From Alphaproteobacteria bacterium (GTDB lineage: Bacteria > Pseudomonadota > Alphaproteobacteria > MPNO01), in contig OZ219866.1 of NCBI GenBank assembly GCA_964291675.2, positions 1,024,001 to 1,088,000 on the forward strand: DNA of 64,000 nucleotides, read 5' to 3'. The position numbers and the translations under genes were made by a program. Below the pieces are notes generated by a model, which saw only the letters and a program-made list of their open reading frames with translations, was not told the origin of the DNA and did not search any database. Shown here piece after piece: positions 5,442 through 47,412 of the stretch; the stretch's first letter is position 1; the number at the start of each line of letters is the position of its first letter.

Positions 5442-5505
5442 CCCTTCCGGGCGATGGGGGGATAACCCGGCCTTTCCCGCCGCACGAAGGTCCGGAGCTC
5501 CGGCC

Positions 5506-6504
5506 GTGAAGCGAATATTTTCCGGCGTCCAGCCGAGCGGCAACCTGCATCTCGGCAACTATCTCGGCGCGATCCGCAACTTCGTCCGCCTGCAGGACGA
5601 ATACGAGTGCGTCTACTGCGTGGTCGACCTGCACGCGATCACGGTCTGGCAGGACCCGGCCGAGCTGGCGCGCAACACCCGCGAATGCGCCGCGACCTTC
5701 CTGGCCGCCGGTATCGACCCCGGGCGCAGCGTCATCTTCAACCAGAGCCGGGTCGCCGCCCATGCCAGGCTGGCCTGGATCTTCAACTGCGTCGCGCGGC
5801 TGGGCTGGCTCAACCGGATGACGCAGTTCAAGGAGAAGGCGGGCAAGCAGCGCGAGAACGCGAGCGTCGGGCTCTACGTCTATCCGAGCCTGATGGCCGC
5901 CGACATACTCGCCTACAAGGCGACCCATGTGCCGGTCGGCGAGGACCAGAAGCAGCATCTGGAGCTCACCCGGGACATCGCGCAGAAGTTCAACCACGAT
6001 TTCGGCACCGAGTTCTTCCCGCTCATCGAGCCGCTGATCTTCGGCGAGGCGACCCGGGTGATGAGCCTGCGCGACGGCGCGGCGAAGATGAGCAAGTCCG
6101 ACGGCTCGGAGGCCTCGCGCATCAACCTGACCGACGACGCGGACTCGATCGCCCACAAGATACGCCGCGCGCGGACCGATCCCGAGCCCCTGCCCCGCTC
6201 GCCGGACGGGCTCGCCGGGCGAGCCGAGGCGGCGAATCTGGTGGGGATATTCGCCGCTCTCGCCGACCGGTCGGCCGAGGACGTGCTGCGGGAGTTCGGC
6301 GGGCGTGGCTTCGCCGATTTCAAGCCCGCGCTGAGCGAGCTCGCCGTCGCCGTGCTGTCGCCGATCGCCGCCGAGCTCAGGCGGCTGATGGCCGATCCCG
6401 GCTATGTCGACTCGGTCCTCGCCGCGGGCGCGGAGCGCGCCGCGGCGATCGCCGATCCGGTGCTCGACGAGGTCCACGAGATCGTCGGCCTCGCCGCCCG
6501 GTGA
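5506..6504 (+). CDS. trpS: Tryptophan--tRNA ligase
   Basis: [32 protein letters not shown]; GTG start at 5506 after ggag. Confidence 0.97.
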
Positions 6505-6524
6505 GCCGGGCAGGCTGACGCCCG

Positions 6525-7448
6525 ATGCAGATCTACCTGCCGATCGCCGAAGTCTCGGTCAATGTCGCGGTGCTGCTCGGCCTCGGCGGCGGCGTCGGCT
6601 TCCTGTCCGGGCTGTTCGGCGTCGGCGGCGGGTTCCTGATGACGCCGCTGCTGATCTTTATCGGCATACCGCCCGCGGTGGCGGTGGCGACCGAGGCCAA
6701 CCAGGTCGTCGCCGCCTCGGTGTCCGGCGCGCTCGCCCACTGGCGGCGGCGCAATGTCGACGTCAAGATGGGGCTGGTGCTGCTCGCCGGCGGCTTCGTC
6801 GGGTCGAGCCTCGGCGTCTGGCTGTTCACCCTGCTGCGCGGCATCGGCCAGATCGATTTCGTGATCTCGGTGGCCTATGTGGTGTTTCTCGGGATCATCG
6901 GCGTGCTGATGGTGGCGGAGAGCGTCCGCGCCTGGCAGCGCCAGCGCAACCCGGCGGCGCCCCGGCGCAAGCTCCACCAGCATTACTGGGTGCACGGATT
7001 GCCGCTCAAGATGCGGTTCCGCGCCTCCAAGCTCTATATCAGCGCGCTGCTGCCGTTCGCCATCGGCCTGTTCGTCGGCGTGCTGGCCGCCATCATGGGC
7101 GTGGGCGGCGGGTTCGTGATGGTGCCGGCGATGATCTACCTGCTCGGCATGCCGACCTCGATCGTGGTCGGGACGTCGCTCTTCCAGATCGTGTTCGTCA
7201 CCGCCAACGTCACCTTGCTGCAGGCGATCAACAACCAGACGGTCGACATCATCCTCGCCTTGTTCCTGCTGATCGGCGGGGTGATCGGCGCCCAGATCGG
7301 CGCCCGGTTCTCGGCCCGGCTGCGCGGCGAGCAGCTCAGGATCCTGCTCGGGCTGATCGTGCTCGCGGTGTGCCTCCGGGTCGCGTACGGGCTGGTCGCC
7401 ACGCCCGACGACTTGTTCGCGCTCGGCGTGCCGGGGGGGCGGGAATGA
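6525..7448 (+). CDS. Sulfite exporter TauE/SafE family membrane protein
   Basis: MQIYLPIAE start, duplicated GVGGGF motif, hydrophobic. Confidence 0.9.
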   Translation: MQIYLPIAEVSVNVAVLLGLGGGVGFLSGLFGVGGGFLMTPLLIFIGIPPAVAVATEANQVVAASVSGALAHWRRRNVDVKMGLVLLAGGFVGSSLGVWLFTLLRGIGQIDFVISVAYVVFLGIIGVLMVAESVRAWQRQRNPAAPRRKLHQHYWVHGLPLKMRFRASKLYISALLPFAIGLFVGVLAAIMGVGGGFVMVPAMIYLLGMPTSIVVGTSLFQIVFVTANVTLLQAINNQTVDIILALFLLIGGVIGAQIGARFSARLRGEQLRILLGLIVLAVCLRVAYGLVATPDDLFALGVPGGRE

Positions 7449-8194
7449 ACCCGGCCCGGCCGATCGCGGCGCTCTTCGCCCTGCTGCTGTGGGCCGCGCC
7501 GCCCGTCCCCGCCCTGGCGGTCGACAGGCTGACGGTGGACCTGTCCAGCGACGAGGTCGCGATCACCACCGGGTTCACCGGAACCGAGCTCCTGCTGTTC
7601 GGCGTCAAGGACGGGCCGGGCGACGTGGTGGTCGTCCTGCTGGGGCCGAACCGCGACGCGGTGGTGCGGCGCCGCGAGCGCGTCGCCGGGGTCTGGGTCA
7701 ACGGCGAGTCCGTCGTCTTTCGCGGCGTGCCGGCCTACTACCATGTCGCCTCGACCCGGCCGATCGAGAGCATCGCGCCGCCCGAGATCCTGGCCGCCAA
7801 CCGGATCGCCGCGGGCACGCTCGACCTCGCGGCCAACACCCGGCTCCCCGCGGCGAAGCGGGCGCCGTTTCGCGACGGGCTGATCCGCAACAAGACCCGC
7901 CAGGGGCTGTTCGGCTACCACCCGGGCGGGGTCACGGTGCAGGGCGAGCGCCTGTTCCGCACCACCGCCGTCTTTCCGGCCAACGTGCCGACCGGCCCCT
8001 ACCGGGTGAATGTCTACCTGTTCGACCGTGGTAAGCTGCTCGCGCGCCAGGAGACCGCGCTGATCGTAAGGAAGCACGGGTTAGGAGCGAGCGTCTTCAA
8101 TTTCGCGCATCGACAGTCGATCCTGTACGGCGTGGTCGCGATCGTCGTCGCGGTAGCTGCGGGATGGCTGGCCGGCGTCGTCTTCCGGAGTTGA
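7445..8194 (+). CDS. Conserved membrane protein (TIGR02186-like), usual partner of the TauE gene
   Basis: Signal peptide, ITTGFTGTELLLFG, C-terminal TM ending GWLAGVVFR; ATGA overlap with upstream gene. Confidence 0.85.
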   Translation: MNPARPIAALFALLLWAAPPVPALAVDRLTVDLSSDEVAITTGFTGTELLLFGVKDGPGDVVVVLLGPNRDAVVRRRERVAGVWVNGESVVFRGVPAYYHVASTRPIESIAPPEILAANRIAAGTLDLAANTRLPAAKRAPFRDGLIRNKTRQGLFGYHPGGVTVQGERLFRTTAVFPANVPTGPYRVNVYLFDRGKLLARQETALIVRKHGLGASVFNFAHRQSILYGVVAIVVAVAAGWLAGVVFRS

Positions 8195-8200
8195 CGGACC

Positions 8201-8725
8201 ATGACCGAAGCCCCGGCCTCGGGCGGCGGTTCCCCCGAACCGACGCCGGAAGACCCGCCCCAGCGGGAGCGGGTCTTCCTCTGCGTCGTCGATTCCAGCG
8301 AAGAAGTCCACGTCGCGCTGCGCTTTGCCGCGCTCCGGGCCAGGCGCTCGGGCGGCCGGGTGGCGCTGCTCTACGTCATCGAGCCCGGCGACTTTCAGCA
8401 TTGGATGTCGGTTGCCGAGAAAATGCGCGAGGAGGGCCGGGAAGAGGCCGAGCAGGTGCTCCAGGAACATGCCGCGGAGGTCGTCGCCATCACCGGCCGC
8501 ACGCCGATCCTCTATGTCCGCGAGGGCGCGCCCCGGGACGCGATCGTGCAGCTCATCGAGGAGGAGCCGGCGATCTCCATCCTGGTACTCGGCGCCGGCA
8601 CCCACAAGAAGGGTCCCGGACCGCTGGTCTCGTCGATCGCCGGCAGGCTGTCGGGCAAGTTTCCCATTCCCATCACCGTGGTGCCCGGAACGCTGAACGA
8701 CGAGCAGCTCGACGCCTTGACGTAA
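8201..8725 (+). CDS. Universal stress protein (UspA family)
   Basis: FLCVVDSSEE...ALRFAA, ILVLGA...GPGPLVS, PITVVPG. Confidence 0.9.
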   Translation: MTEAPASGGGSPEPTPEDPPQRERVFLCVVDSSEEVHVALRFAALRARRSGGRVALLYVIEPGDFQHWMSVAEKMREEGREEAEQVLQEHAAEVVAITGRTPILYVREGAPRDAIVQLIEEEPAISILVLGAGTHKKGPGPLVSSIAGRLSGKFPIPITVVPGTLNDEQLDALT

Positions 8726-8733
8726 CCAAAAAG

Positions 8734-8742
8734 TTATCCACA
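8734..8742 (+). promoter_or_regulatory. Perfect DnaA box TTATCCACA in intergenic region
   Basis: Exact match to the canonical 9-mer. Confidence 0.55.
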
Positions 8743-8826
8743 AGACTCTTGAACCAGGGGGCCGTTCGGCCCAATCTGGACAGAGAGGAAACGGTTCAAC
8801 GATAAAGGGAGACTGGACCGGGGGTC

Positions 8827-9867
8827 GTGTATGCCCGCCGGCTTCCAGCAGATAAAGGGTTGATTGGATCGCGAGGTTGGCGAGCCGTCCGCCTCGGATG
8901 GCTGGCCGGGCTGTCGGTCGCTCTGGTTCCATCGGTCGCGGTCGCGGAGACCGATACCGCGCCGGCTGGCGATGGCGGTTTCCGGCTCTCATACCTTGAA
9001 CGCTCCCCGGTCGAAAGTTGGCGCGACCTCGGTCTCGGCCGTCGCGCGCCCGGCGGGACCGTGGAAGCCCTCGAGGCGCTGTTCGCGCGTCTCGATTACC
9101 GTCTCGACCGGGTGCGCGAGCGCGGCGTGGTGCCGCGCCTTCTGGTGCGCCGGATGCCTGATGGGTTGTCCCGGATGCGCGGGACCGAGCGGCGCAAGGC
9201 GCTGTTCATCCGCATCGCGCTGCCGTTGATCCTGACCACCAACGAGGCGATCCTGCGCGACCGGAGTCGCATCGAGAGCCTGCGGGCGGCGTATGTCCGG
9301 GACGGATTTCTGCCCGCCGGCGAAGCACGCTGGCTGTGGCAAGTTTTCGCCACCTACAACGTGAAGCCGTTCGATTTCGGGGAGCTGCTGTCCCGGGTCG
9401 ACATCGTGCCGCCCTCCCTCGCCGTCGCCCAGGCGGCGGAGGAGACCGGATGGGGCACTTCGCGGTTCGTCCGGCGCGGCAACGCGATGTTCGGCGAACG
9501 GACCTGGAAGAGCCGCGACGGGATGATCCCCCGGCGCAAGCGGCCCGGGGACAAGTTCCGCGTCCGCCGTTTCAGCCAGCTGCTCGCCGCGGTGGCGGCC
9601 TATGTGTCCAACCTCAACACCCATCCCGCCTATGCGGCATTCCGGGCGCGGCGCGGCGAGATGCGCCGGGCGAACGCCGTGCTGGATGCCAGCGCGCTGG
9701 CCGGCGGGCTGGAGGCCTATTCGGTGCGCCGGAAGGCCTATATCCGGACCGTACGCGCGATCATCCGCACCAACGCGCTCGCCGACCTCGACCGCCTGGA
9801 GCTCGAATCCGGCCAGCCGCAATACGCGACCGGCCCGTTCCCTGGCACGCGCCGCCTGGCCAACTAG
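8827..9867 (+). CDS. Glucosaminidase-domain (GH73, Bax-like) periplasmic protein
   Basis: RVDIVPPSLAVAQAAEETGWGTSRF, GNAMFGERTW, NLNTHPAY; signal-like N-terminus; start uncertain. Confidence 0.88.
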   Translation: MYARRLPADKGLIGSRGWRAVRLGWLAGLSVALVPSVAVAETDTAPAGDGGFRLSYLERSPVESWRDLGLGRRAPGGTVEALEALFARLDYRLDRVRERGVVPRLLVRRMPDGLSRMRGTERRKALFIRIALPLILTTNEAILRDRSRIESLRAAYVRDGFLPAGEARWLWQVFATYNVKPFDFGELLSRVDIVPPSLAVAQAAEETGWGTSRFVRRGNAMFGERTWKSRDGMIPRRKRPGDKFRVRRFSQLLAAVAAYVSNLNTHPAYAAFRARRGEMRRANAVLDASALAGGLEAYSVRRKAYIRTVRAIIRTNALADLDRLELESGQPQYATGPFPGTRRLAN

Positions 9868-10985
9868 GGCCGCGGCACCACGAACTGGGTGCCGAACCAG
9901 CGCCAGCGGCCCTGTCTGGCCGGCATGGTGCAGTTGAGGCGCGGTCGCCCGGGCGGGAACGCCCGGTTGAACCGCAGCTCCACCCGCGCCGGCCCGATGC
10001 GTTCCAGGCGAACCTTTCCCTGACCCGAGGCGTAGCATGTGAGCAGGTCGATATAGGCCAGTGCGCGGCCGGCCACGGTGAAGCCCACATTGGGCGGATT
10101 GCGGCCCGGCCCCAAAAGGCTGTCCGCCGGGGTGATGTCGGTTACCTCCAGGGGCAGCGCATCGGCGGCGAGACGAAAGCGCTCGGCGTCGCCATGCACC
10201 TCGTTCATCGGAAACCGCGGCAGGAAATGGAAGTGCGAACCGGGATGGATCACACCCGAATGGTGTCCCAGCGCCGCCGCGAACCCGTTCTCCAGCACCA
10301 CCTCCCGCACCGCGAGCGACATCGCTCCGTACGGGTAGGCGAAGAGCTCCGGTGTTGCGCCGAGCTCCTCCTCGAAACGGCGCGACGCGCGCTTGATGTC
10401 GCGGTCGTTGCTCTCGCGCCCGAGCGTCGGCATCTGGTTGTGCGACGCCGTCTGGTTGCCGATGGTCGCCCCGCCGCGCACCACTTCGCGGATCTGTTCC
10501 CAGCTCATGTAGTGCTCGCGGCCTTCGTCGATCGCATCGGTGGAGACGAACAGGGTGACGGGCAGCTCCGCCTGCCGCAGCCTCGGCCAGGCCTCGGTGT
10601 AGAAGGACAGAAACGCGCCGTCGACGGTGAGCGCCACCGTGCGGTCGGGCAGACTCCGTCCGGCCTTGAGCGCCGCCAGTATTTCCGGCAGCGCCATCAC
10701 GTTGAGGCCGCGTTCCGCGATCACCTTCAGATGGGCCTCGAACTGATCGATGCGGATCGCCGCGGACGGCACATTCCGGTCGCCGAATCTCTGATACATG
10801 AGAACGACGGCGGAGGTGGCGGCGGCGGCTCCGGTCAGGCCGCCCCAGCCCGTCAGGACGGCCAGCCCCGCAAGCGCGCAGCACAGCGTCCGTCGCAACA
10901 GCCGGCATGCGCATCCTGCTGTCGGAAAGCGTGTCATGCGAGCCCTCACCAGGCGAAGGTTGCGCGCATTGAGCACCCGGGGCAA
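9864..10985 (-). CDS. Polysaccharide deacetylase family (CE4/NodB) protein with altered active-site motifs
   Basis: LMYQRFG, VALTVDGA, MSWEQIRE, FAYPYG, LPRFPMNE; start uncertain. Confidence 0.85.
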   Translation of the reverse strand: MPRVLNARNLRLVRARMTRFPTAGCACRLLRRTLCCALAGLAVLTGWGGLTGAAAATSAVVLMYQRFGDRNVPSAAIRIDQFEAHLKVIAERGLNVMALPEILAALKAGRSLPDRTVALTVDGAFLSFYTEAWPRLRQAELPVTLFVSTDAIDEGREHYMSWEQIREVVRGGATIGNQTASHNQMPTLGRESNDRDIKRASRRFEEELGATPELFAYPYGAMSLAVREVVLENGFAAALGHHSGVIHPGSHFHFLPRFPMNEVHGDAERFRLAADALPLEVTDITPADSLLGPGRNPPNVGFTVAGRALAYIDLLTCYASGQGKVRLERIGPARVELRFNRAFPPGRPRLNCTMPARQGRWRWFGTQFVVPRP

Positions 10986-34588: not shown

Positions 34589-34648
34589 CTGCGGCGGTCT
34601 CTATTGTAATTGAAGTGTAATGACCGGCCCGGCATACGAGTTCCGGCG

Positions 34649-35080
34649 ATGCAACGCTCCTATACGCCGCTGATCGAGACGCTGAGGCGCCATGGCCTGC
34701 GCCCGACCCGCCAGCGCCTCGCGCTGGCCAAGCTGCTGTTCACCGGAGCCAACCGCCATGTCAGCGCCGAGCGTTTGCACGAGGAGGCGCTCGGCGCCGG
34801 GGCGAGCGTCTCGCTGGCGACCGTCTACAACACGCTGAACCAGTTCACCGCCGTCGGCCTGCTGCGCGAGGTGATCGTCGATCCCGACCGGTCCTATTTC
34901 GACACCAACACGGCCGATCATCATCACCTGTACTTCCAGGACACCGGCCGCCTCGAGGACATCGAGGCTGCGGAAGTGCGGATCGGCGAGCTGCCCGACC
35001 CACCGGCCGGGACGACGATCGCCAGGGTCGATCTGGTCATCCGCCTGACCGGCCGCCCGGACCGGCCCGGCGGTCGTTAG
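34649..35080 (+). CDS. irr: Iron response regulator Irr (Fur family)
   Basis: GLRPTRQRLAL, VSLATVYNTLNQF, YFDTNTADHHH, VDLVIRL. Confidence 0.88.
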   Translation: MQRSYTPLIETLRRHGLRPTRQRLALAKLLFTGANRHVSAERLHEEALGAGASVSLATVYNTLNQFTAVGLLREVIVDPDRSYFDTNTADHHHLYFQDTGRLEDIEAAEVRIGELPDPPAGTTIARVDLVIRLTGRPDRPGGR

Positions 35081-35092
35081 AACCATTCCAAC
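35076..35092. promoter_or_regulatory. Irr-box (ICE)-like palindrome beside the putative katG promoter
   Basis: GTTAGAA-CCA-TTCCAAC, 15/17 match to consensus; followed by TTGACC (35096) and GTAAAT/TAAATG (about 35119). Confidence 0.65.
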
Positions 35093-35164
35093 CTATTGAC
35101 CCTCATCGCCGACTCCCTGTAAATGTGCTCATCGGCGCCTGACGGCGGTGGCGCGAACGCATGA

Positions 35165-37432
<2,268 letters not shown>

Positions 37433-37939: not shown

Positions 37940-38047
37940 CGTCCCTCGATACGCCCCCTTCGGAGGCTACTCGGGGTGAGGGGGTTTCTTCCGCCGCACC
38001 AACCCACCCTCATCCTGAGCAGCGGCGAAGCCGCGTATCGCAGGACG
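37940..38047. repeat. REP-like palindromic element, family A, copy 1
   Basis: cgtccctcgatacg...ctactcggggtgag / ctcatcctgagcag...cgtatcgcaggacg inverted arms; closely similar copy at 43030-43143. Confidence 0.85.
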
Positions 38048-38071
38048 GCCGCGTCTGCGGTTTCCCCAAGC

Positions 38072-38091
38072 CGTCATGCCCGGGCATGACG
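38072..38091. repeat. Perfect 20-bp palindrome, collapsed REP family B
   Basis: cgtcatgcccgggcatgacg; arms match the ends of 42123-42217. Confidence 0.7.
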
Positions 38092-38104
38092 CGGTGAGCG
38101 TGCC

Positions 38105-38437
38105 CTAGCCGAGTATGGCGGCGAGCCGGGCGAGCACGTCGTCGATGACGTGCTCCGGCACCGTGTCGACACGTCTCCCGTTCCTGGCGCCGAGGTCGAG
38201 GGCGCGAGGCTGGTCGCAGCGGATCACGCCCGTGGTGCGCGTGCCCGCGCCTTCCAGGGAAACCGCAAAACCTCGCCTGCGTGCGAAGTTCCCGCCGGTG
38301 GTGATGGGCACGACGACGGGCGTCCCGGTCAGCCGGTTGAACGCCTCGGGCGATACGATCAGTACCGGGCGGGTGCCCTGTTGTTCATGGCCGGCGGTGG
38401 GATCCAGGCTGACGAGCCAGATGTCTCCCCGCTTCAC
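38105..38437 (-). CDS. pemK: PemK/Kid (MazF family) endoribonuclease toxin
   Basis: KRGDIWLVSLDPTAGHEQQGTRPVLIV...GGNFAR..GFAVSL...TTGVIRCDQPR, close to plasmid PemK as recalled; GTG start overlaps the antitoxin stop. Confidence 0.93.
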   Translation of the reverse strand: MKRGDIWLVSLDPTAGHEQQGTRPVLIVSPEAFNRLTGTPVVVPITTGGNFARRRGFAVSLEGAGTRTTGVIRCDQPRALDLGARNGRRVDTVPEHVIDDVLARLAAILG

Positions 38438-38691
38438 TACAACAGCTCGTTGCCGACCGGTCTGGCATCCAGCCAGGCCCGGTCGTCGTCGGAAGGAGCG
38501 CCCTCTTCGCACTGCGCCAGAAGCTCGTCGAGCGTGTAGCTCGGACGCGTCCTGGGTTCGACGATCAGGCGACCGTTCTCCACCGCGATATTCACCCTGG
38601 CCCCCACCCCAAGCTCCAGCAGATCGAGCAGCGCCGGGGGCACCGCGAGCATGACGGAACCGCCGACCCTGCGCAGATTCGTCGTATGCAT
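38437..38691 (-). CDS. pemI: PemI/Kis (AbrB/MazE family) antitoxin
   Basis: MHTTNLRRVGGSVMLAVPPALL...NGRLIVEP..RPSYTLDELLAQC. Confidence 0.93.
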   Translation of the reverse strand: MHTTNLRRVGGSVMLAVPPALLDLLELGVGARVNIAVENGRLIVEPRTRPSYTLDELLAQCEEGAPSDDDRAWLDARPVGNELL

Positions 38692-38703
38692 GGGCGCCCC
38701 CTT

Positions 38704-38721
38704 GTTTTACAAAAATATAAC
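38704..38721 (-). promoter_or_regulatory. pemIK operator/promoter (imperfect 18-bp inverted repeat)
   Basis: Minus strand reads GTTATATTTTTGTAAAAC; AT-rich, resembles kis-kid operator half-site GTTATATTT. Confidence 0.65.
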
Positions 38722-38831
38722 CGTGTCCGTCCGGTAAGGCAAATTCCCCCGGGCCATTCCGGGGCGCGGTTCGCCTGGCGGGCGAAATGCGCTAGCTTGC
38801 CGGGCTTCCGATTTCGAGGGGGAAGACGGCG

Positions 38832-39692
38832 ATGGACTGGACGAGGCGGCGCGAGCGCTACCGTGGGGTGCTCGAAGGCGGGGAGTGCATCCACCCGGGC
38901 TCGGTGTACGATCCGATCTCGGCCCGCATCGCCGAGGATCTCGGCTTCGAGGTCGGCATGTTCGCCGGCTCCATCGCCTCGATGACGGTGCTCGGCGCGC
39001 CCGACCTGATCGTCATGACGCTGAGCGAGTTCGCCGGCCAGGCCTACCGCATCTGCCGCGCCGGCGACCTCGCGCTGATGTGCGACGCCGATCACGGCTA
39101 CGGCAACGCGCTCAGCGTGATGCGCACGGTCGAGGAGCTGGAGGCCGCCGGCGTCGCCGCGTTCACCATCGAGGATACCGAGCTCCCCGCGCCCTACGCG
39201 GCCGACGGGCCGCGGCTGCTCACCCTCGACGAGGGTGTGGGCAAGATGAAGGCCGCGCTCGCCGCCCGCAGCGACAAGCGCCTGGCGATCGCCGGGCGCA
39301 CCAGCGCCGCCACCATCGCCGGCATGGACGAGGCGCTCGGCCGCATCGCGGCCTACGAGGCGGCCGGGGTCGACGCGGTGTTTCTCACCGGCATCAGAAC
39401 GAAGGCCCAGGTCGAGGCCGTCGCCGCGACCGTGGACATCCCGGTGATCCTCGGCGCGGCGGGGCCGGAGATCCAGGACCTCGACTATCTGGCGGCCAAC
39501 GGCGTGCGCATCTGCCTGCAGGGGCACCAGCCCTTCATGGCCGCCGTCCGGGCGGTGCATGCGACGCTGAAGGCGCTGCGCGCCGGCACGCCGGCCGCCG
39601 AGCTCGAGGGGGTGGCCTCGCCCGAGCTGATGCGGACCGTCACCCGCGACGGCGACTACCGGCGCTGGATCGAGGACTATCTCGGCGGATGA
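38832..39692 (+). CDS. Isocitrate lyase/PEP mutase superfamily enzyme, oxaloacetate decarboxylase-like
   Basis: SVYDPISARIAEDLGFE, DADHGYGNALSVMRTV, IEDTELP; lacks the KKCGH/KxNS loops of ICL/PEP mutase. Confidence 0.85.
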   Translation: MDWTRRRERYRGVLEGGECIHPGSVYDPISARIAEDLGFEVGMFAGSIASMTVLGAPDLIVMTLSEFAGQAYRICRAGDLALMCDADHGYGNALSVMRTVEELEAAGVAAFTIEDTELPAPYAADGPRLLTLDEGVGKMKAALAARSDKRLAIAGRTSAATIAGMDEALGRIAAYEAAGVDAVFLTGIRTKAQVEAVAATVDIPVILGAAGPEIQDLDYLAANGVRICLQGHQPFMAAVRAVHATLKALRAGTPAAELEGVASPELMRTVTRDGDYRRWIEDYLGG

Positions 39693-40879
39693 CTTCGCGC
39701 CGCCATGCCGAGATCGCGGGCGCCGGATTCGCCGGGCTGGTCGCCGCCATCGCGCTCGCCGACCGCGGCTGGACCGTCCGGGTGCATGAGCGCGCCGATG
39801 CGCTTCGCGCCTTCGGCGCCGGCATCTTCATCTGGGAGAACGGGCTCCGGGTGCTGAAGGCGATCGGCGCCTATGACGATGTGCTTGCCGGCTCGCATGA
39901 CGGCGAGGTGTACGAGGTCCGCGACCGCGACCGGGTGGTCGTCGAGACCGCGTTCAACCGCGCCATGGGCAGCCGTATGCTGACCATGACCCGCCAGACG
40001 CTGTACGCCGCGATCCTCGGCCAGGCCGAGCGCCGCGGCATCGAGATCCTGACCCGCTCCGAGGTCGTCGGCGCCGAGCCCGCGGGCGTGCTGCTGACCG
40101 CCGGTGGCGGGCGTCACGCGGCCGATCTCGTCATCGGCGCCGACGGCGTGCACTCGCGGGTGCGGGACTCGCTGGGTTTGCAGAAGGAGCGCGACACCGG
40201 CACGCTCGGCCTGGTCCGCGTGCTCGCCCCGCGCTGCCTCGACGAGCTCGGCCCCGGGCGCTGGGACCGGGTGATCGATTTCTGGAACCTGCCGCAGCGC
40301 TCGCTCCGCATCCTCTACGTGCCCTGCAACGCCGACGACCTCTATCTCGCGATGATGGCGCCGGTCGAGGACGCAGAGGCGACCGCAATTCCGGTGCGCG
40401 CCGATATCTGGGTGCCGGCCTTTCCCCAGCTCGAGCCGGCGATCCGCCTTCTGTCGGCCGAGGGGCGCTACGACGCCTACGAGACCGGCAAGCTCACGCG
40501 CTGGTCGCAGGGAAGGGTGGCGATCGTGGGCGATTCCGCGCACGCCATGGTGCCCTCGCTGGGCCAGGGGGCGGGGCTCGCGATGGCCAACGCGCTCGGC
40601 CTCGCCGTCGCGCTCGACGAGGTTCCCGACATCGCCGATGCGCTCGCCCGCTGGGAGGCGCGGGAACGGCCGCGCACCGAGCGCACCCAGGACCTGTCCG
40701 CCAGGATCGCCCGCGACCGGCTGGAGACGGCCGGGCGGATCTGGTCGGACGAGACGACTCGAACCGCTTGCAGCGTGCCGACCGGCACCGAACACCTGCC
40801 GCACGGTGTCGACGGCTTGCCAGATGCCCCACAGTCGCGGCTTGATGGCCGGGACAGGGCGATGCGGACGGGAGGGTGA
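39689..40879 (+). CDS. FAD-dependent oxygenase, MHPCO (2-methyl-3-hydroxypyridine-5-carboxylate oxygenase)-like
   Basis: AEIAGAGFAGL, LRAFGAGIFIWENGLRVL, GADG, WDRVIDFWN...RILYVPCN, GDSAHAMVPSLGQGAG; ATGA-coupled to upstream gene. Confidence 0.85.
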   Translation: MTSRRHAEIAGAGFAGLVAAIALADRGWTVRVHERADALRAFGAGIFIWENGLRVLKAIGAYDDVLAGSHDGEVYEVRDRDRVVVETAFNRAMGSRMLTMTRQTLYAAILGQAERRGIEILTRSEVVGAEPAGVLLTAGGGRHAADLVIGADGVHSRVRDSLGLQKERDTGTLGLVRVLAPRCLDELGPGRWDRVIDFWNLPQRSLRILYVPCNADDLYLAMMAPVEDAEATAIPVRADIWVPAFPQLEPAIRLLSAEGRYDAYETGKLTRWSQGRVAIVGDSAHAMVPSLGQGAGLAMANALGLAVALDEVPDIADALARWEARERPRTERTQDLSARIARDRLETAGRIWSDETTRTACSVPTGTEHLPHGVDGLPDAPQSRLDGRDRAMRTGG

Positions 40880-40882
40880 ACC

Positions 40883-42049
40883 ATGCGCCGCTACGATGCG
40901 CTGGAGGCGATCGCGCCCAGGGTGGGCGACGCCCTGGTGGTGACCAACCTCGCCAACACGGCGACCGAGTGGCGCACGCTGCGCCCGCATGACGGCAATC
41001 TCTACTTCGTCGGCATGGGGATGGTGACGCCCTACGCGCTGGGGCTCGCGCTCGCCCTGCCGCATCGCCGCGTGCTCGCCTTCGACGGCGATGGCGGCAT
41101 CCTGTTCGAGATGAGCGTGCTGGGGACGCTCGCCCAGTCGGCGCCGAAGAATCTCTGCGTCGTGGTGCTCGACAACGAGGGCTACGTCTCGACCGGCAAG
41201 TGGCAGTCGGTCGCCTCGTTGTCGGCCGGGCCGGTCGACATCGCCGGCGTCGCGCGCGCCTCGGGGCTTGCCAATGTCTCCGAGGTGTCGACGGTCGAGG
41301 CGTTCGAGGCCGAGGTCGCTTCCGGGCTCGCGCGCGAGGACGGGCCGACCGTGATCGTCGCCAAGACCAGCGTCGAGCAGGCCTTCGTCGGCACCTCGCC
41401 CTCGGACGGCAAGGAGAACAAGTACAGCTTCGTCCGCCATGTCGAGGGGCTGGAGGGCAAGGCGATCCTCAAACCGTCGGCGCGCGAGCACGGCGAGCCG
41501 CCGAGGCCCGACCCCGAGTTCAGCCCGGTGGGGGACGACGATGCGTTCGGCGAGGTGCTGTTCGACGGGCTGCGCGAGAATCTCGTCGATTTCGTGATCG
41601 GCCTGCCGTGCAGCGGCTTCGCGCACACGCTGCAGCGCTGCATGGACGACCAGTCGATGCACTACGTCGCCGTCGCCAACGAGGGCACCGGGATCGGCAT
41701 CTGCGCCGGCGCCTGGCTCGGCGGCAAGACGCCGGCTGCGGTGATCGAGAATTTCGGCGTCTTCGCCGCGACCTACCAGCTGATGCGCGGGCACTACACC
41801 TTCGGCATCCCGACGCTGCTGATGACCGAGTACCGGGGCGACGGCGGCGAGACCGAGTTCTTTGGCGATTGCGGCGACATGACCGAGCCGCTGTTGCAGG
41901 CGACGCGGATCAACTACCGCGTGGTGCGCGACATCCACCAGCTCAAGCCGGCGATCCGCGACGGGCTGAGATGGATGAATTTCGGCCTCCGCCCCTACGC
42001 CGTGCTGCCGGGCTACGACCTGTCCCGGCCCCGGCCGCCGAAGGGCTAG
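40883..42049 (+). CDS. TPP-dependent decarboxylase (sulfopyruvate/phosphonopyruvate decarboxylase-like), beta and alpha subunits fused in reversed order
   Basis: N-half has DGDGG...LDNEGY TPP motif (ComE-like); C-half has GLPCS, ANEGTGIGICAGAWLGG, YRGDGGE (ComD-like). Confidence 0.82.
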   Translation: MRRYDALEAIAPRVGDALVVTNLANTATEWRTLRPHDGNLYFVGMGMVTPYALGLALALPHRRVLAFDGDGGILFEMSVLGTLAQSAPKNLCVVVLDNEGYVSTGKWQSVASLSAGPVDIAGVARASGLANVSEVSTVEAFEAEVASGLAREDGPTVIVAKTSVEQAFVGTSPSDGKENKYSFVRHVEGLEGKAILKPSAREHGEPPRPDPEFSPVGDDDAFGEVLFDGLRENLVDFVIGLPCSGFAHTLQRCMDDQSMHYVAVANEGTGIGICAGAWLGGKTPAAVIENFGVFAATYQLMRGHYTFGIPTLLMTEYRGDGGETEFFGDCGDMTEPLLQATRINYRVVRDIHQLKPAIRDGLRWMNFGLRPYAVLPGYDLSRPRPPKG

Positions 42050-42122
42050 GTGTGTTGCGCAAGCTCCTCCGCTCGAGGTCGGCCCAATACGCGATCTCTC
42101 TGGCCACGCCCTTGCCACAACT

Positions 42123-42217
42123 CGTCATGCCCGGACTTGTTCCGGGCATCTCTCTCCGCAAGGCGCGCCCGATGCGGGGCAAGCGCGTGGATGGCCGGAA
42201 CAAGTCCGGCCATGACG
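42123..42217. repeat. REP-like palindromic element, family B
   Basis: cgtcatgcccggacttgttccgggcatc ... gatggccggaacaagtccggccatgacg; each arm self-complementary and mutually inverted. Confidence 0.85.
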
Positions 42218-42278
42218 GGTCAGGGGTCCTCGACGTACGGATCGTGACTTCTCGAACAGGCCTCCAGGGAATGCCCCG

Positions 42279-43001
42279 ATGATCTTCGAATGCCGCCGCT
42301 ATACCCTCCAGCCCGGGCGGATGGGGGATTTCATCGCGCTCCAGCACCGGCGCGGCTTCGACGGGCCGAATGCCGGGTTCATCTCTCGGGTGATCGGCTA
42401 TTTCGAGACCGTCACCGGAACGCCCGAGCAGATCGTCCACCTCTACCGCTACGACAGCCACGCCGACTGGATCGAGAAGCTGCACGGGCTCTATGCCGTC
42501 CCCGAGCTCGCCTTCTACTTCACCGAGGCGCGGGCGATGGTGGACCGCCAGGAGACCAATTTCTTCCAGCCCGCCCCGCTCGCCGAGCTCTGCCCGCTGT
42601 GGCACGGCGAGACCGACTGGCTGCCCGGGCCGGGGCGGGAGCGCTGGGATCTCGGCGACATGCCCGACCTGGTGGTCGAGGAGACCCTGGAGGCGCTTAA
42701 GCCCGGCGGGCTCGTGGCCTACTGGCAGGCGATGGAGGCGTGCGGGCTGGAGGCCACGGCGCCGCTGCGGCGCGACACCTTGGCCACCTGGTGGTCGATG
42801 ACCGGGCGGCTCCACGTGGTCGCCTCGTATCGCCTGTTCGCGTCGCTCGCCGAGCGCGAGCGCTGCCGGCGCGAGGCCGCGGACGGCGCCGCGATGGCGG
42901 CGTTCGACGCGGCGCTGCGGCCGATCCTGCGCGAGCGGACGACCACCCTGCTCCGCCCCGTGCGCGTGCCCCAGATGAGCCCGATGTTCCGCCTCGGCTG
43001 A
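42279..43001 (+). CDS. NIPSNAP family protein (tandem domains)
   Basis: IFECRRYTLQPG, IVHLYRYDS; second degenerate domain with GRLHVVASYR..ASLAERERCR. Confidence 0.8.
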   Translation: MIFECRRYTLQPGRMGDFIALQHRRGFDGPNAGFISRVIGYFETVTGTPEQIVHLYRYDSHADWIEKLHGLYAVPELAFYFTEARAMVDRQETNFFQPAPLAELCPLWHGETDWLPGPGRERWDLGDMPDLVVEETLEALKPGGLVAYWQAMEACGLEATAPLRRDTLATWWSMTGRLHVVASYRLFASLAERERCRREAADGAAMAAFDAALRPILRERTTTLLRPVRVPQMSPMFRLG

Positions 43002-43029
43002 GGCGAATTTCCCGGCAGCGCAGCCGAGG

Positions 43030-43143
43030 GCGTCCTTCGATACGCCCCCTTCGGGGGCTACTCAGGATGAGGGAGGGCTATTGCGGCCGTCCGACACCTC
43101 ACCCTCATCCTGAGTAGCGGCGAAGCCGCGTATCGAAGGACGC
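43030..43143. repeat. REP-like palindromic element, family A, copy 2
   Basis: gcgtccttcgatacg...ctactcaggatgaggg / ccctcatcctgagtag...cgtatcgaaggacgc; abuts the dctM-like stop codon. Confidence 0.88.
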
Positions 43144-44502
43144 CTACCCCATCGTCCGCGGCAGCCAGAGCACGATGCCGGGGAAGGCGAGCAGCACGCC
43201 GACGGTGATCACGTCGGCGACGAAGAACGGGCCGATGCCGCGGAACACGTCCTGCAGCGGGATGGCGAGCGAGCGGCCCTCGGCGTCGCGCAGCTCGCGC
43301 GAGACCCCCGCGACGACGAAGCAGTTGAGGCCGATCGGCGGGGTGATCAGGCAGATCTCGGCCATCTTGACGACGATGATTCCGAACCAGATCGGGTCGT
43401 AGCCGAGCGCGACGACGGCCGGGAAGACCACCGGCAATGTGAGCACCAGCATGCCGATCGCATCCATGAACATGCCGAGCACGGCATAGGCCAGCAGGAT
43501 GCAGATCATGATCAGGATCGGCGGCATGTCGAGCGTGACCACCCAATCGGCGAAGGCGCTCGGCAGCCCGGCGAAGCCGAGGAAGCGGACGAACAGGAAG
43601 ACGCCCCAGATCAGGGTGAAGATCATCACCGTGAGCTTCGCCGTCTCCATCAGCGCCTCGTGCAGCCGGCCCCGCATCTCGCCCAGCGCGCGCTCGCGCC
43701 AGGCGCGGAGCGCGTAGAAGCAGAACACCACCATGGCGCCGAGCGCGCCCGCCTCGGTCGGGGTCGCGGCGCCGGTATAGAGCGCGCCGAAGATGACGCC
43801 GACGACGATGAAGATGGGGAGCGTCCCGGGCAGGCTCGCGAAGCGCTGCCGCCAGGTGAAGCCGGCGATCGGCCGGCCGAGCTCCGGGCGGAGCCTGCAC
43901 ATGCCGACGATCAGCGCCGCATAGATCAGCGCGGACACGATGCCCGGCAGGAAGCCGGCGAGCAGCAGCCGGCCCACCGATTCCTCGACGATGATGGCAT
44001 AGACGACGAGGATCGCGGACGGAGGGATCAGCGATGCCAGGGTCCCGCCGGCGGCGATCACGCCGGCGGTCAGCCGCCGGTCGTAGGCGTTGCGCAGCAT
44101 GTCCGGGATGGCGACGCGGGAGAACACCGCGGCCGTCGCCGTCGAGGCGCCGGACACCGCGGCGAAGCCGGCGGTGGCGAACACGGTCGCCACCGCGAGC
44201 CCGCCCGGCACCCAGCCGAACCAGCGCCGCGCCGCCTCGAACAGCCGCGAGGTGAGCCCGGCATAGAAAGCGAGGAAGCCGATCAGGATGAACAGCGGCA
44301 GCACCGAGAGCGGGTAGGTGACGGTCTTGGAATGCGGGATGGTGCCGGCGATGGCGCCCGCGATGTCCCAGTTCTTGAGCGCCAGCAGACCCAGGAAACC
44401 GGTCAGCGCGGCGGCGACGAAGACGCGGACCCCGATGACCACCATGACAATCAGCAGGCAGACGCCCAGAATGCCGATGGAGAAGTTGTCGAGGCCGAGC
44501 AT
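43144..44502 (-). CDS. TRAP transporter large permease (DctM family)
   Basis: PLFILIG, AVSGASTA, GGTLASLIPPS, TPTEAGALG, ITPPIGLN. Confidence 0.95.
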   Translation of the reverse strand: MLGLDNFSIGILGVCLLIVMVVIGVRVFVAAALTGFLGLLALKNWDIAGAIAGTIPHSKTVTYPLSVLPLFILIGFLAFYAGLTSRLFEAARRWFGWVPGGLAVATVFATAGFAAVSGASTATAAVFSRVAIPDMLRNAYDRRLTAGVIAAGGTLASLIPPSAILVVYAIIVEESVGRLLLAGFLPGIVSALIYAALIVGMCRLRPELGRPIAGFTWRQRFASLPGTLPIFIVVGVIFGALYTGAATPTEAGALGAMVVFCFYALRAWRERALGEMRGRLHEALMETAKLTVMIFTLIWGVFLFVRFLGFAGLPSAFADWVVTLDMPPILIMICILLAYAVLGMFMDAIGMLVLTLPVVFPAVVALGYDPIWFGIIVVKMAEICLITPPIGLNCFVVAGVSRELRDAEGRSLAIPLQDVFRGIGPFFVADVITVGVLLAFPGIVLWLPRTMG

Positions 44503-44504
44503 CG

Positions 44505-45104
44505 CTAGCGGCCCCCTTCGCGCGCCTGGCCGATCTCCTCGGCCGCCGCCTGCTCCACGTCCTTCAGCAGCGGCACCGCCACCGGCTCGCTACCGGGACG
44601 AGCTGCGAGCCGGAGATAGCCCGCCATCTGTACCGCGAGCCGGACCAGCAATACGGCAAGCGCGACCGGAACCACCAGCTTGGCCGGCCAGGTGACGATC
44701 TCGATGTCGATGGTGGAATCGCCGAAATCGAAGGCGCGTTCGAAATGGCGGTAAGAGTAGGGGATCAGCACCGCGACGATGAACATGGCGAGCGCCGTGC
44801 CCACCGCCTCGGCGATCCAGAGCGCGCGTCCCCGGAAGCGGGCGACGACGAGCTCCATGCGCACATGACCGCCGACCCGCTGGACGAAGGCGATGGCGAG
44901 CACGGCGAAACCCACCATCGACACCTCGACGATGTCGATATAGCCGAAGATCGGGCTGCGGAAGACGGTGCGCAGCACGATCTGCGCGACGCCGAGCAGC
45001 ATCAGCGCGAAGATCAGCAGCCCGGCCAGCAGGTTGAGCCGGTTCTCCACCCGGCCGAGCCACAGATCGGCCCGCGCGAGGGCGCGGCCAAGGGCATCGC
45101 TCAT
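44505..45104 (-). CDS. TRAP transporter small permease (DctQ family)
   Basis: Four TM segments, GGHVRMELV, position in operon. Confidence 0.92.
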   Translation of the reverse strand: MSDALGRALARADLWLGRVENRLNLLAGLLIFALMLLGVAQIVLRTVFRSPIFGYIDIVEVSMVGFAVLAIAFVQRVGGHVRMELVVARFRGRALWIAEAVGTALAMFIVAVLIPYSYRHFERAFDFGDSTIDIEIVTWPAKLVVPVALAVLLVRLAVQMAGYLRLAARPGSEPVAVPLLKDVEQAAAEEIGQAREGGR

Positions 45105-45162: not shown

Positions 45163-46194
45163 CTAGTAGGTCTTGCCTACCGCCTTGAAGATGGTCTGGA
45201 TCACGCCCCGGGCGTCGAACTTGCCCTGGTTGTCCTCGATCCAGGCCTCGATCACCGGCTTGCCCCCGGCGGCGCGGAACCTGGCGAGCTGATCCTCGGA
45301 GTAGCGGACTTCCTTTAGCTTCTTCTTCAGCATCGGCAGGTTCTTCTTGTCCATCGTGACATAGGCCCGGATCTGGGTCTCGATCACGTCCTCCTTCGCG
45401 TCGTCCAGCAGCTTCCTGTACTGCGCGGGCAGCGCTTCATAGGCCTTGATCGAAAACGCCAGCGGGCAGTCCGACGTGCCGGGCGAGAGGTTGGCGGTGT
45501 ACCAGTCGGCCACCTCGTGGATCTTGTAGGCGACATGCGCGTAGGTGAAGGGAAAGGATGCGGCGTCCATCGTCCCCTGCTGCACGCCGGTATAGACCTC
45601 GGTGGCGGTCGAGGTCGTCGGCGTTGCGCCGAGCACCTTCATCGCGCGGGCGACGCCGCCGCCGGCGCGCACCGTCAGCCCCTTCCAGTCGGCGAGCGTC
45701 GCCGGCGGCTTGCCCTTGCCCAGGAACTCGTATTGCGGCAGGTAGGACGACACGTAGGTCATCGCGTTCCACCTGGCGAGCTCCTTCTTCACCGCCGGGT
45801 GGGCGTAGACCGCGTCGCGGATCTTGCGGTTGTTGCCCCAGTCGCCCATCGGCAGGAACGGCATGGTGAGCGACATCAGCGCCGGGTTCTTCTTCGGGTG
45901 GTAGAAGTTGCAGAACATCGCCGCCTGGAACGCATCCACCGAGAGCCCGTCGAGGTTCTCGCGCGATTTCGACAGCGCCCCGCCATAGTGCAGCTTGATG
46001 GTCCAGTTGCCGCCGGTCTTCTCGGCGACCAGCGCGGACAGCCGCTCGACGCCGGCCGTGAACGCGCGCTTCTTGCCCCAGAGCGAGACATCCCAGTTGA
46101 GCTTCGGCCCGTCCACCTCGGCCGCCTTGGCTCCGGCCGCGGCGAAGCCGATCGCGGCGAGCAAAGCGAGCCCCGTTGCACCGATTCTCCTCAT
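45163..46194 (-). CDS. TRAP transporter substrate-binding protein (DctP family)
   Basis: Signal peptide, ADWKGLTVRA, LGATP...EVYTGVQQGTMD. Confidence 0.92.
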   Translation of the reverse strand: MRRIGATGLALLAAIGFAAAGAKAAEVDGPKLNWDVSLWGKKRAFTAGVERLSALVAEKTGGNWTIKLHYGGALSKSRENLDGLSVDAFQAAMFCNFYHPKKNPALMSLTMPFLPMGDWGNNRKIRDAVYAHPAVKKELARWNAMTYVSSYLPQYEFLGKGKPPATLADWKGLTVRAGGGVARAMKVLGATPTTSTATEVYTGVQQGTMDAASFPFTYAHVAYKIHEVADWYTANLSPGTSDCPLAFSIKAYEALPAQYRKLLDDAKEDVIETQIRAYVTMDKKNLPMLKKKLKEVRYSEDQLARFRAAGGKPVIEAWIEDNQGKFDARGVIQTIFKAVGKTY

Positions 46195-46317
46195 GGCACC
46201 TGATCTCCCTTGTCCATTGACCCCCAATTTAGACCGTTTCACCGGGAAGTCGACTGCCAGCCCGCATTGTCGGCCGGACAGCGCCGCGCAGGCCATGACA
46301 GTGGCGGGAAATGCGGG

Positions 46318-47325
46318 CTAGGCGAGCGCCGGCATCACGTGGCGGGCGAACAGCTCGACCGAGCGCGTGGTCTCCTCGCGCGTCAGGTCGCCGAACGCCA
46401 TCTGGCCCACCATGTAGTTGGCCTCGGCGACCGCCATGCGCTCGGCGAGGACGGCGGCGACGGTATCCGGGCTTCCCGCCACCGCGCGGCCCTGGCCCGC
46501 CATCTCGTCGAAGCTCGGCGGGCGCCGGTGTTTGGGCAGCGGCGCGTCGTGAAGCACGAACAGATAGTTGAAGCTGCGGTGCCAGACCGGATAGGCGCGG
46601 CGCGCGGACGCCAACGCTTCCGCATCGCTCTCGCCCACCACCACGAACATGCCGAGCCCGACGAGGCCGGGCGCGCTGTCCGCGCCATGCGCCTCGGCCC
46701 AGGTCGACCGGTAGCTGCGCGCGAAGGCGCCGGTCTCCTCGGCGGTATCCAGGCTCACGATATGGCTCCCCATGCGCGCCGCCCGCGCCGCGCTGTCGGT
46801 GGCATGCACGCCGTACCAGAGCGGCGGGTGGGGCTTCTGGTAGGGCTCGACGAAGAGCGGGGTGTCGTCGAAGCTCGCGTATTTTCCGCGGTGGTGGAGC
46901 CTGCCGTTGGCGAGCCCGTCGAGCACGATGTCGAGATACTCGCGGTAGATCGGCTCGGCCTCCGCGTGGTCGTTGCCGAAATAGGACGCCTCGATGGGTG
47001 ATGCGCCGCGGCCGAAGCCGATCTCCAGCCTTCCGCCGCTCATCTGGTCGAGCATGCAGATCTCCTGCACCAGGCGGAGCGGGTGGTAGAGCGGCAGCGC
47101 GTAGACCAGCGGGCCGAAGCGGAGCCGCTCGGTGCGCATCGCCACCGCGCTGAGGAACAGATTGGGCGACGGCGCCATGCCGAGCGGCGTCGAGTGGTGC
47201 TCGGCCACGTGGTAGCTGCGGAAGCCCGAGCGCTCGAACAGCCCGATCAGCGCCAGACGGTCGGCGTAGTATTCGTCGAGCGGCTGGCCGGTCGCGTCGA
47301 GATGGTCGAAGATGCCGAATTCCAC
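46318..47325 (-). CDS. LLM-class (luciferase-like) flavin-dependent oxidoreductase
   Basis: FGIFDH, YHVAEHHSTPLG, LDQMSGGRLEIGFGRG, PYQKPHPPLW. Confidence 0.92.
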   Translation of the reverse strand: MEFGIFDHLDATGQPLDEYYADRLALIGLFERSGFRSYHVAEHHSTPLGMAPSPNLFLSAVAMRTERLRFGPLVYALPLYHPLRLVQEICMLDQMSGGRLEIGFGRGASPIEASYFGNDHAEAEPIYREYLDIVLDGLANGRLHHRGKYASFDDTPLFVEPYQKPHPPLWYGVHATDSAARAARMGSHIVSLDTAEETGAFARSYRSTWAEAHGADSAPGLVGLGMFVVVGESDAEALASARRAYPVWHRSFNYLFVLHDAPLPKHRRPPSFDEMAGQGRAVAGSPDTVAAVLAERMAVAEANYMVGQMAFGDLTREETTRSVELFARHVMPALA

Positions 47326-47412
47326 GCGTTTTCCCTTCCCGCCCCCGCAGCCGCCGGGGATTGTTGCAGGCGGCCGCGCAACCATCAATCATGGCGCGAC
47401 GGAGGATCCGAC

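Follow-up and report, generated by a model that had tools for sequence, protein, structure and literature searches.

What does a compact block of catabolic genes in an alphaproteobacterial genome degrade, and is it part of an undescribed pathway for N-heterocycles? The block lies in a 64,000-nt stretch of assembly GCA_964291675.2 (contig OZ219866.1, positions 1,024,001 to 1,088,000, forward strand), hereafter the window, and opens with three open reading frames (ORFs) on the plus strand. P0001 (286 aa, 38832–39692) is a PA4872-like gene probably encoding an oxaloacetate-type beta-decarboxylase or lyase, P0002 (396 aa, 39689–40879, ATG at 39689) encodes a group A flavoprotein oxygenase of the MHPCO type, and P0003 (388 aa, 40883–42049) is predicted from Pfam and NCBIfam matches to encode a small thiamine diphosphate (ThDP)-dependent decarboxylase. 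A sequence-only reading of this DNA had proposed an operon of these three genes in which the cleavage of a hydroxypyridine or other heteroaromatic ring is followed by two decarboxylations. Our best explanation, held tentatively, is that a four-gene, lineage-restricted operon serves as a module for the breakdown of a 3-hydroxypyridine carboxylate, in which a ThDP decarboxylase may have replaced an HMPDdc-like partner of the oxygenase. The evidence fits a decarboxylase acting before the oxygenase at least as well as ring cleavage followed by two decarboxylations, and we regard the locus as a new variant within an already known type of catabolic module.

The trio is coupled as had been described. 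The ATG of P0002 (39689–39691) lies over the TGA stop codon of P0001 (39690–39692) in an ATGA overlap (39689–39692), 3 nt (40880–40882, acc) separate the stop codon of P0002 from the ATG of P0003, and a GGGAGGG run is present ahead of that ATG at 40870–40876. The unit, however, really consists of four genes rather than three. The fourth is a plus-strand gene (42279–43001, 240 aa) for a two-domain NIPSNAP protein (Pfam NIPSNAP, E value 2.9e-20, in two stretches), which directly follows the ThDP gene in 10/10 loci of the genus with downstream sequence and also in locus L015 of genome G410. It starts 229 nt past the ThDP gene in this genome, whereas the same gap measures only ~0–36 nt in relatives (tblastn coordinates). 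A palindromic repeat (42085–42235, 151 nt, no strand) lies between the two genes; its inverted-repeat arms (42120–42150 and 42190–42220) are 31 nt each and 90 % complementary. This segment returned 62 matches at E<=1e-5 in its own 4.8-Mb genome, itself and reverse-strand matches counted, and we therefore consider it a dispersed element resembling repetitive extragenic palindromes or miniature inverted-repeat transposable elements. Contigs of RNA library X1 and run X2 connect 42037/42042 straight to 42275, which is the repeat-free form; together with the short gap in relatives, these contigs indicate that the repeat is an insertion into an operon. None of the RNA-library contigs listed spans the junction of genes 1 and 2 or that of genes 2 and 3, these being contig-only data in which coverage gaps are uninformative. 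Comparison of the NIPSNAP protein with a protein atlas returned NIPSNAP clusters only and gave no functional lead.

The resemblance of P0002 to MHPCO, noted in the sequence-only reading, extends along its length (PDB 3alj: E value 2.2e-102, 346 bits, residues 4–354). The next family, NicC, is far behind (5eow: 93.5 bits, E value 1e-25), and the closest characterised relative of P0002 is MHPCO, well apart from NicC, HpxO and others. The MHPCO positions Tyr82, Arg181, Arg211, Tyr223 and Tyr270 are all kept in P0002, and we presume functional roles for Arg181, Arg211 and Tyr270. Across 119 sequences of the orthogroup, the Tyr82 position is occupied by Tyr in 114 and by His in five, and the other four positions are invariant; in four more distant paralogues, the Tyr82 position holds Arg, Arg, Asn or Trp, and the Tyr270 position is Phe in three of the four. 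Tyr82 and Tyr223 of MHPCO are reported to ensure deprotonation of the substrate, the enzyme acting on MHPC (2-methyl-3-hydroxypyridine-5-carboxylate) as well as on 5-hydroxynicotinate (PMC6180312), while KnmB1 and CaeB6 are described as plain pyridine hydroxylases without the MHPCO catalytic residues (PMC9838390). P0002 is matched by Pfam FAD_binding_3 (E value 6.3e-23) and carries GAGFAG, GADG and GDSAH; the motifs given in that same source for group A monooxygenases dependent on flavin adenine dinucleotide (FAD) are GXGXXG, DG and GD (PMC9838390). The protein ends in a tail of ~42 residues that is not conserved.

P0002 is the closest to MHPCO of three paralogues in the genome (346 bits vs 245 and 212). 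The two others, at C2:1642010-1643011 (L047, 49 % identity) and C2:1728717-1729712 (L048, 42 %), both lack equivalents of Tyr82 and Tyr270 and adjoin genes for a molybdenum hydroxylase, a 2-oxoglutarate (2OG) oxygenase, a cupin and an amidohydrolase; these loci are likely other N-heterocycle clusters.

The absence of the usual vitamin B6 partners had been offered as a reason to look beyond B6 degradation. At this locus the observation stands, as a Pfam scan of the ORFs called at 29.3–56.7 kb of the window detected no member of the HMPDdc-type or (N-acetylaminomethylene)succinate (AAMS) hydrolase families. It does not extend to orthologues of the oxygenase elsewhere, which adjoin an Mlr6791/HMPDdc-like gene at 13/22 loci. 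These 22 metagenome loci, whose oxygenase is 60–75 % identical, contain this class II aldolase gene (13/22), a two-domain VOC gene (15/22), an alpha/beta hydrolase gene (8/22), an NMT1-type binding-protein gene (7/22) and a LysR gene (4/22), and the ThDP gene in none (0/22). The aldolase neighbour matches PDB 2z7b (Mlr6791) at 1.2e-48, and 2Z7B is described as HMPDdc, the Mn-dependent 3-hydroxy-2-methylpyridine-4,5-dicarboxylate decarboxylase (PMC11841055). In the oxygenase tree, the orthogroup forms one clade (support 100) and the ThDP-linked rows, which come from the genus and from genome G413, branch within the aldolase/VOC-linked ones. This was a quick maximum-likelihood tree (96 sequences, LG+G4, branch support by the Shimodaira–Hasegawa-like approximate likelihood ratio test only), and the distant paralogues used as its root do not form one clean side.

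Soil metagenome loci L142-L157, L207 and L212 (e.g. L153, 3427–9199) present a recurrent row of LysR, alpha/beta hydrolase, HMPDdc-like and two-domain VOC genes, then a divergent MHPCO orthologue and an NMT1-type gene. This cluster has the appearance of a lower-B6-type module supplemented by a VOC enzyme that the described pathway does not include. The alpha/beta hydrolase encoded beside the oxygenase of genome G411 was considered as an AAMS hydrolase and rejected: at E<=1e-10 it has 35 matches in the PDB, which are meta-cleavage-product hydrolases and similar enzymes and include no AAMS hydrolase.

P0003 was also correctly recognised as permuted: Pfam TPP_enzyme_C (residues 39–159) precedes TPP_enzyme_N (222–296), and residues 1–186 match positions 171–359 of the phosphonopyruvate decarboxylase model. 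The protein has a pyrophosphate-binding (PP, beta-like) domain at 1–186, then a pyrimidine-binding (PYR, alpha-like) domain at ~222–375, and no middle domain. It scores below all curated cut-offs (TIGR03297 (Ppd) 144.7 vs 312.5; TIGR03846 (sulfopyruvate beta) 115.4 vs 221.5; TIGR03845 74.8 vs 147.95). The cofactor-binding G69-D70-G71-G72 and D97-N98 and the cofactor-activating E267 do not vary across 118 sequences of the family. An alignment-based AlphaFold2 model (mean predicted local distance difference test score 91.1, predicted template modelling (TM) score 0.93) found its best fold matches in the AzcB/AzcC alpha-imino acid decarboxylase subunits (TM to target 0.87–0.89) and in RhiEF; transketolases, which are likewise arranged PP then PYR, align to the model over 425–550 columns. 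Two of these small enzymes offer chemical precedent. In riboflavin breakdown, LumK/LumL, a member of the class with two subunits, is reported to decarboxylate a quinoxaline carboxylic acid (PMC12746152); the title of PDB 9U8Q names AzcB/AzcC as a thiamine pyrophosphate (TPP)-dependent alpha-imino acid decarboxylase.

The P0003 family comprises 226 clusters at 90 % identity with the 383–400 aa architecture, 58–94 % identical and bearing automatic names only. A 50 %-identity library contained 45 proteins at E<=1e-30 to P0003, and among the best 150 library matches about 10 clusters are collinear with the full protein, the rest being stand-alone beta-like proteins or alpha-then-beta fusions. The 14 ThDP loci from outside the genus hold carboxylate transporter genes (TctC in 6/14) plus oxygenase and hydrolase genes, and further neighbours of the family elsewhere encode TauD, LigB, a molybdenum hydroxylase, flavin monooxygenases and arylformamidase-like cyclases; genome G309 has a row of major facilitator superfamily (MFS), TauD and ThDP genes. 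We also considered a sulfonate reading of the family and retained it as a low-probability rival only, as none of the TauD, luciferase-like monooxygenase (LLM) or SsuA-like neighbours reaches an equivalog cut-off.

A one-strand row in genome G412 (L130, G412:C1:1642085-1655242, 4134–10238) runs DctP, DctQ, DctM, ThDP, arylformamidase-like cyclase and LLM, beside a Rieske protein gene; the tripartite ATP-independent periplasmic (TRAP) transporter and LLM families of this row also lie convergent to the block in our window. Further small ThDP paralogues are encoded in the genome under study at C2:3400467-3401571 and C2:1159412-1159852, and one paralogue pair, arranged alpha then beta, is 32 % and 36 % identical to the halves of P0003. 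The genome thus described has an expanded set of small ThDP enzymes.

How might these enzymes act together? In the explanation that we tentatively favour, the oxygenase orthogroup would normally act together with a decarboxylase preparing its substrate and a hydrolase processing its product, and a small ThDP decarboxylase, with NIPSNAP, would have taken the place of the decarboxylase beside the oxygenase in this lineage. The ThDP enzyme could take off the carboxyl that adjoins the C=N of the ring in a hydroxypyridine dicarboxylate, or one from an alpha-imino or 2-oxo acid after ring opening; LumK/LumL and AzcB/AzcC, which decarboxylate C=N-adjacent carboxylates, are a point in favour. With NAD(P)H and O2, the flavoprotein would then hydroxylate the 5-hydroxynicotinate- or MHPC-like acid so formed and open its ring to give an (acylamino)methylene-succinate, from which an amidase or hydrolase with its gene at another locus would complete the route to succinic semialdehyde. 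The PA4872-like enzyme would be a resident general oxaloacetate-type decarboxylase whose gene happens to head the operon, contributing at most a beta-decarboxylation. A more specific proposal, which we place on the unlikely side, is that the PP-then-PYR family consists of heteroaromatic or alpha-imino carboxylate decarboxylases, and that its member here feeds an MHPCO-type ring opener by taking the carboxyl adjacent to the ring nitrogen off a hydroxypyridine dicarboxylate, an undescribed route used by one Defluviicoccus-related genus. The suggestion that no pathway with this trio has been described agrees with our full-text literature search on 5-hydroxynicotinate or MHPC with thiamine pyrophosphate, which found none.

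The distribution of the block was followed through ThDP-seeded loci of species-representative genomes (n=25), 78 genomes of the order and oxygenase-seeded metagenome loci (n=80). Genes in the fetched loci were called with ORF and third-position GC heuristics, by which small or atypical genes may be overlooked. The expected co-occurrence of the three genes proved to be conserved within one genus but not beyond it. All three are present in 11/25 ThDP-seeded loci (ThDP identity 89–98 %), from metagenome-assembled genomes titled Defluviicoccus sp. or Alphaproteobacteria bacterium; 1/25 (L011, 78 %) has the oxygenase and ThDP genes only, 1/25 (L015, 81 %) the ThDP and NIPSNAP genes, and 12/25 the ThDP gene alone. 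Within the order, 12/12 genomes of the genus hold the trio, contiguous in the 11/11 others than this one, a set that is largely the same as the 11 ThDP-seeded loci. The ATGA overlap and short gaps are kept in all 12 while the flanks vary. Sister genera contain fragments of the block only. In genome G413, from another genus, the oxygenase and ThDP genes are adjacent, and in genome G410 a frameshifted PA4872-like gene is followed by a binding-protein gene on the opposite strand, the oxygenase gene and transposases. The transposases are two DDE-type genes after the oxygenase (L082, G410:C1, 10623–12960), and the G410 arrangement is consistent with the block having been broken up by mobile elements. 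Among the 80 oxygenase-seeded metagenome loci, two hold the trio (86–91 % identity), and only these carry ThDP, PA4872-like or NIPSNAP genes. A sample of 400 other genomes from the class yielded the ThDP enzyme in one and an MHPCO-like gene at E<=1e-40 in 10.

Several observations weigh against a dedicated module with an exchanged partner. The oxygenase and ThDP genes are 1.3 Mb apart in G412, and the ThDP–NIPSNAP pair of G410 (L015/L129) is on a different contig from the oxygenase. Five genomes of the order have an oxygenase orthologue without the ThDP gene (G408, G409, G411, G474 and G475) and five others have the ThDP gene without an oxygenase orthologue (G309, G465, G467, G468 and G473). 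The oxygenase is found in 0/13 more distant ThDP loci and the ThDP gene in 0/78 more distant oxygenase loci, many of the contigs being short. The linkage may go back to one ancestral event within a single family, and it erodes. The identity of P0002 to MHPCO (~45–55 %) gives no guarantee of ring opening, a hydrolase for the ring-opened product is not encoded in the operon, and an HMPDdc-like homologue is still present in the genome, although its family occurs in 77/78 genomes of the order whether or not they have the oxygenase. Finally, the sole hint of co-transcription comes from RNA-library contigs of related strains across the ThDP–NIPSNAP junction, and such libraries can contain DNA.

In a rival explanation, the genes would share no pathway and stand together by a positional accident in one lineage: the PA4872-like protein would be a general oxaloacetate decarboxylase, the oxygenase would need no partner in acting on a hydroxypyridine acid, and the ThDP and NIPSNAP genes would form a module of their own for a different organic acid. 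Each gene is indeed found singly in other contexts, ThDP and NIPSNAP occur without the oxygenase in G410, the ThDP gene sits inside the TRAP/cyclase/LLM row of G412, and the linkage was not seen outside the family. We nevertheless consider an accident doubtful. An overlap and short gaps kept in every genome of the genus, amid flanks (MazEF and the downstream genes) that vary, are not what it would predict, nor is the recurrence of the oxygenase–ThDP adjacency in G413; moreover, the oxygenase orthogroup is regularly paired with a decarboxylase elsewhere.

The next alternative retains the order of the sequence-only reading: the ring would be opened first, the PA4872-like enzyme would remove the beta-carboxyl of an oxaloacetate-type product (e.g. 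an oxalosuccinate-like compound from a 6-carboxy substrate), and the ThDP enzyme would act last on the alpha-carboxyl of a 2-oxo or alpha-imino acid. The translational coupling of the trio throughout the genus speaks for it, and the chemistry fits the families, in that PA4872 is described as an oxaloacetate decarboxylase, a widely kept single-copy gene in pseudomonads (PMC8100219), and small ThDP enzymes act on 2-oxo or alpha-imino acids. The assignment of P0001 to the PA4872-type subfamily rather than to phosphoenolpyruvate (PEP) mutase was upheld (PDB 3b8i: E value 4e-70, residues 7–284, vs 2e-23 for the best PEP mutase; next PDB entry after 3b8i, 1.7e-27). Pfam PEP_mutase (5.1e-36) places the protein in the superfamily of PEP mutase and isocitrate lyase, and it falls below every NCBIfam equivalog cut-off (PEP mutase TIGR02320: 73.4 bits vs 319.55). 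Against the ring-first order, the gene is present as a single copy in 62/78 genomes of the order (19/24 genera), mostly genomes without the other two genes, and is therefore probably a resident general gene. Its neighbours across the order vary, being CDP-alcohol phosphatidyltransferase/YdjC/ABC-F genes, genes of the dihydrodipicolinate synthase (DHDPS) family, or a Rieske/hydrolase/GMC set. Within the family of the present genome it is frameshifted in G410, where it occupies two reading frames (L082, G410:C1, 7373–8231), either a frameshift or an error of assembly. In G409, G412 and G413, all of which bear the oxygenase, it was not detected, and the G408 genome is only 64 % complete. The position of PA4872 Tyr212 is Ala in P0001 and Gly, Ala, Ser or Thr in all 22 order orthologues examined, in which the His235 position is always His; we take both to be active-site residues of PA4872. 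The wide single-copy distribution, the variable neighbours and the patchy retention within the family argue against a pathway-specific role, which seems unlikely. Known products of the MHPCO reaction contain no 2-oxo acid group, and the operon includes no deacylating hydrolase. We therefore regard the ring-first order as distinctly unlikely.

Could the locus instead take part in genuine vitamin B6 degradation through MHPC, with the remaining genes of the pathway scattered in the genome? Of the genome's paralogues, P0002 is nearest to MHPCO of M. loti and retains the active-site residues of that enzyme, and the genome encodes one HMPDdc-like homologue. This gene, the only HMPDdc-like match in the genome (L153 references), is at C2:1169564-1170331, outside the window and 105 kb from the cluster. 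Its family does not track the oxygenase, and with members in 77/78 genomes of the order we rejected the homologue as a dedicated hidden partner. Nor was a close alpha/beta hydrolase partner found in the genome, where the best matches are 29–33 % identical, and those obtained with the L153 references (26–29 %) lie outside the window; genes of the upper pathway were not searched for. B6 degradation is accordingly a poor prospect. At the homologue itself (C2:1169564-1172593; L220, 9565–12593; outside the window), the class II aldolase gene stands beside a divergent LysR gene; next come a small ThDP enzyme in two pieces and an enolase-superfamily gene. Of the two pieces, the alpha-like one has 172 aa (BLASTP 2e-14 to the P0003 PYR domain) and the beta-like one lies at C2:1170904-1171449.

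A role in phosphonate or sulfonate metabolism is very improbable, for although the pairing of a PEP-mutase-family with a phosphonopyruvate decarboxylase (Ppd)-type enzyme is a hallmark of phosphonate biosynthesis and genes of the TauD and SsuA/NMT1 types are found at some loci of the ThDP family, P0001 is far under the PEP mutase cut-off and much nearer PA4872, P0003 is under the Ppd and sulfopyruvate beta cut-offs, so that the PepM plus Ppd reading was rejected on curated scores, and the TauD and LLM neighbours are below the taurine and alkanesulfonate equivalog cut-offs.

The block was said to lie between a toxin–antitoxin module and a repeat, and this is the case. A MazF/MazE-type pair is encoded upstream on the minus strand (38105–38691; Pfam; PemK/MazF-type 38105–38512, 2.7e-31; MazE-type 38437–38691), and the palindromic repeat is downstream of the trio. 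The pair is a variable neighbour, present in some loci of the genus and missing from others in which KatG is directly upstream, and is outside the operon unit. Fur-family regulator and KatG catalase-peroxidase genes (34610–37432), on the same strand and directly upstream of the block, are syntenic in most genomes of the genus. Convergent to the block on the minus strand are the TRAP transporter genes DctM (43144–44502), DctQ (44505–45104) and DctP (45163–46296) and an LLM gene (46318–47388), all assigned by Pfam. The TRAP and LLM genes adjoin the block in L002, L007 and L008 (3/10 genus loci with downstream sequence) and also in L134; an association with the block is possible and not fixed. 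A promoter and terminator scan of 38000–43300 returned one promoter-like site (minus strand, MazE side) and two weak terminator-like sites, none above shuffled controls.

ThDP-dependent decarboxylation of carboxylates attached to C=N was first reported in 2025–2026, to judge from the account of LumK/LumL (PMC12746152) and the title of the AzcB/AzcC entry (PDB 9U8Q). A ThDP enzyme coupled to a pyridine ring-opening oxygenase would allow a cheap and concrete test of such chemistry in pyridine catabolism with a few recombinant proteins, and the same test would assign a function to a ThDP family now bearing automatic names only. If the result were negative, the locus would be an ordinary lineage-specific rearrangement of catabolic genes. 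What makes the locus worth attention is chiefly its rearranged ThDP family, which is uncharacterised, and how easily a test could be made.

Among known systems, the lower vitamin B6 module (HMPDdc, MHPCO and AAMS hydrolase) is reminiscent of the surroundings of P0002 orthologues elsewhere, which include HMPDdc-like and alpha/beta hydrolase genes. At the present locus, in contrast, neither an HMPDdc nor a hydrolase gene is adjacent, and ThDP decarboxylase, NIPSNAP and PA4872-like genes are found instead. P0002 shares full-length similarity and the FAD motifs with MHPCO (Mesorhizobium loti mlr6788; PDB 3ALJ/3GMB); by eye, the two agree at roughly half of the aligned positions, and P0002 differs in its extra 42-residue C-terminal tail. 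P0001 aligns over its whole length with PA4872 of P. aeruginosa (PDB 3B8I) and has in common with it the segments DADHGYGN and IEDT as well as the position of His235, whereas heading an operon with an oxygenase is a feature of this genus's gene only. P0003, finally, resembles a group of small ThDP decarboxylases made of two parts, namely ComDE (for sulfopyruvate), Ppd/RhiEF (for phosphonopyruvate; PDB 9IZ3), LumK/LumL and AzcB/AzcC, in possessing only PP and PYR domains. It shares with this group a metal motif of the form GDG...DN as well as the activating Glu, and its closest sequence and fold matches are found there; its two parts, however, are fused PP then PYR, the reverse of Ppd and the same order as in transketolases.

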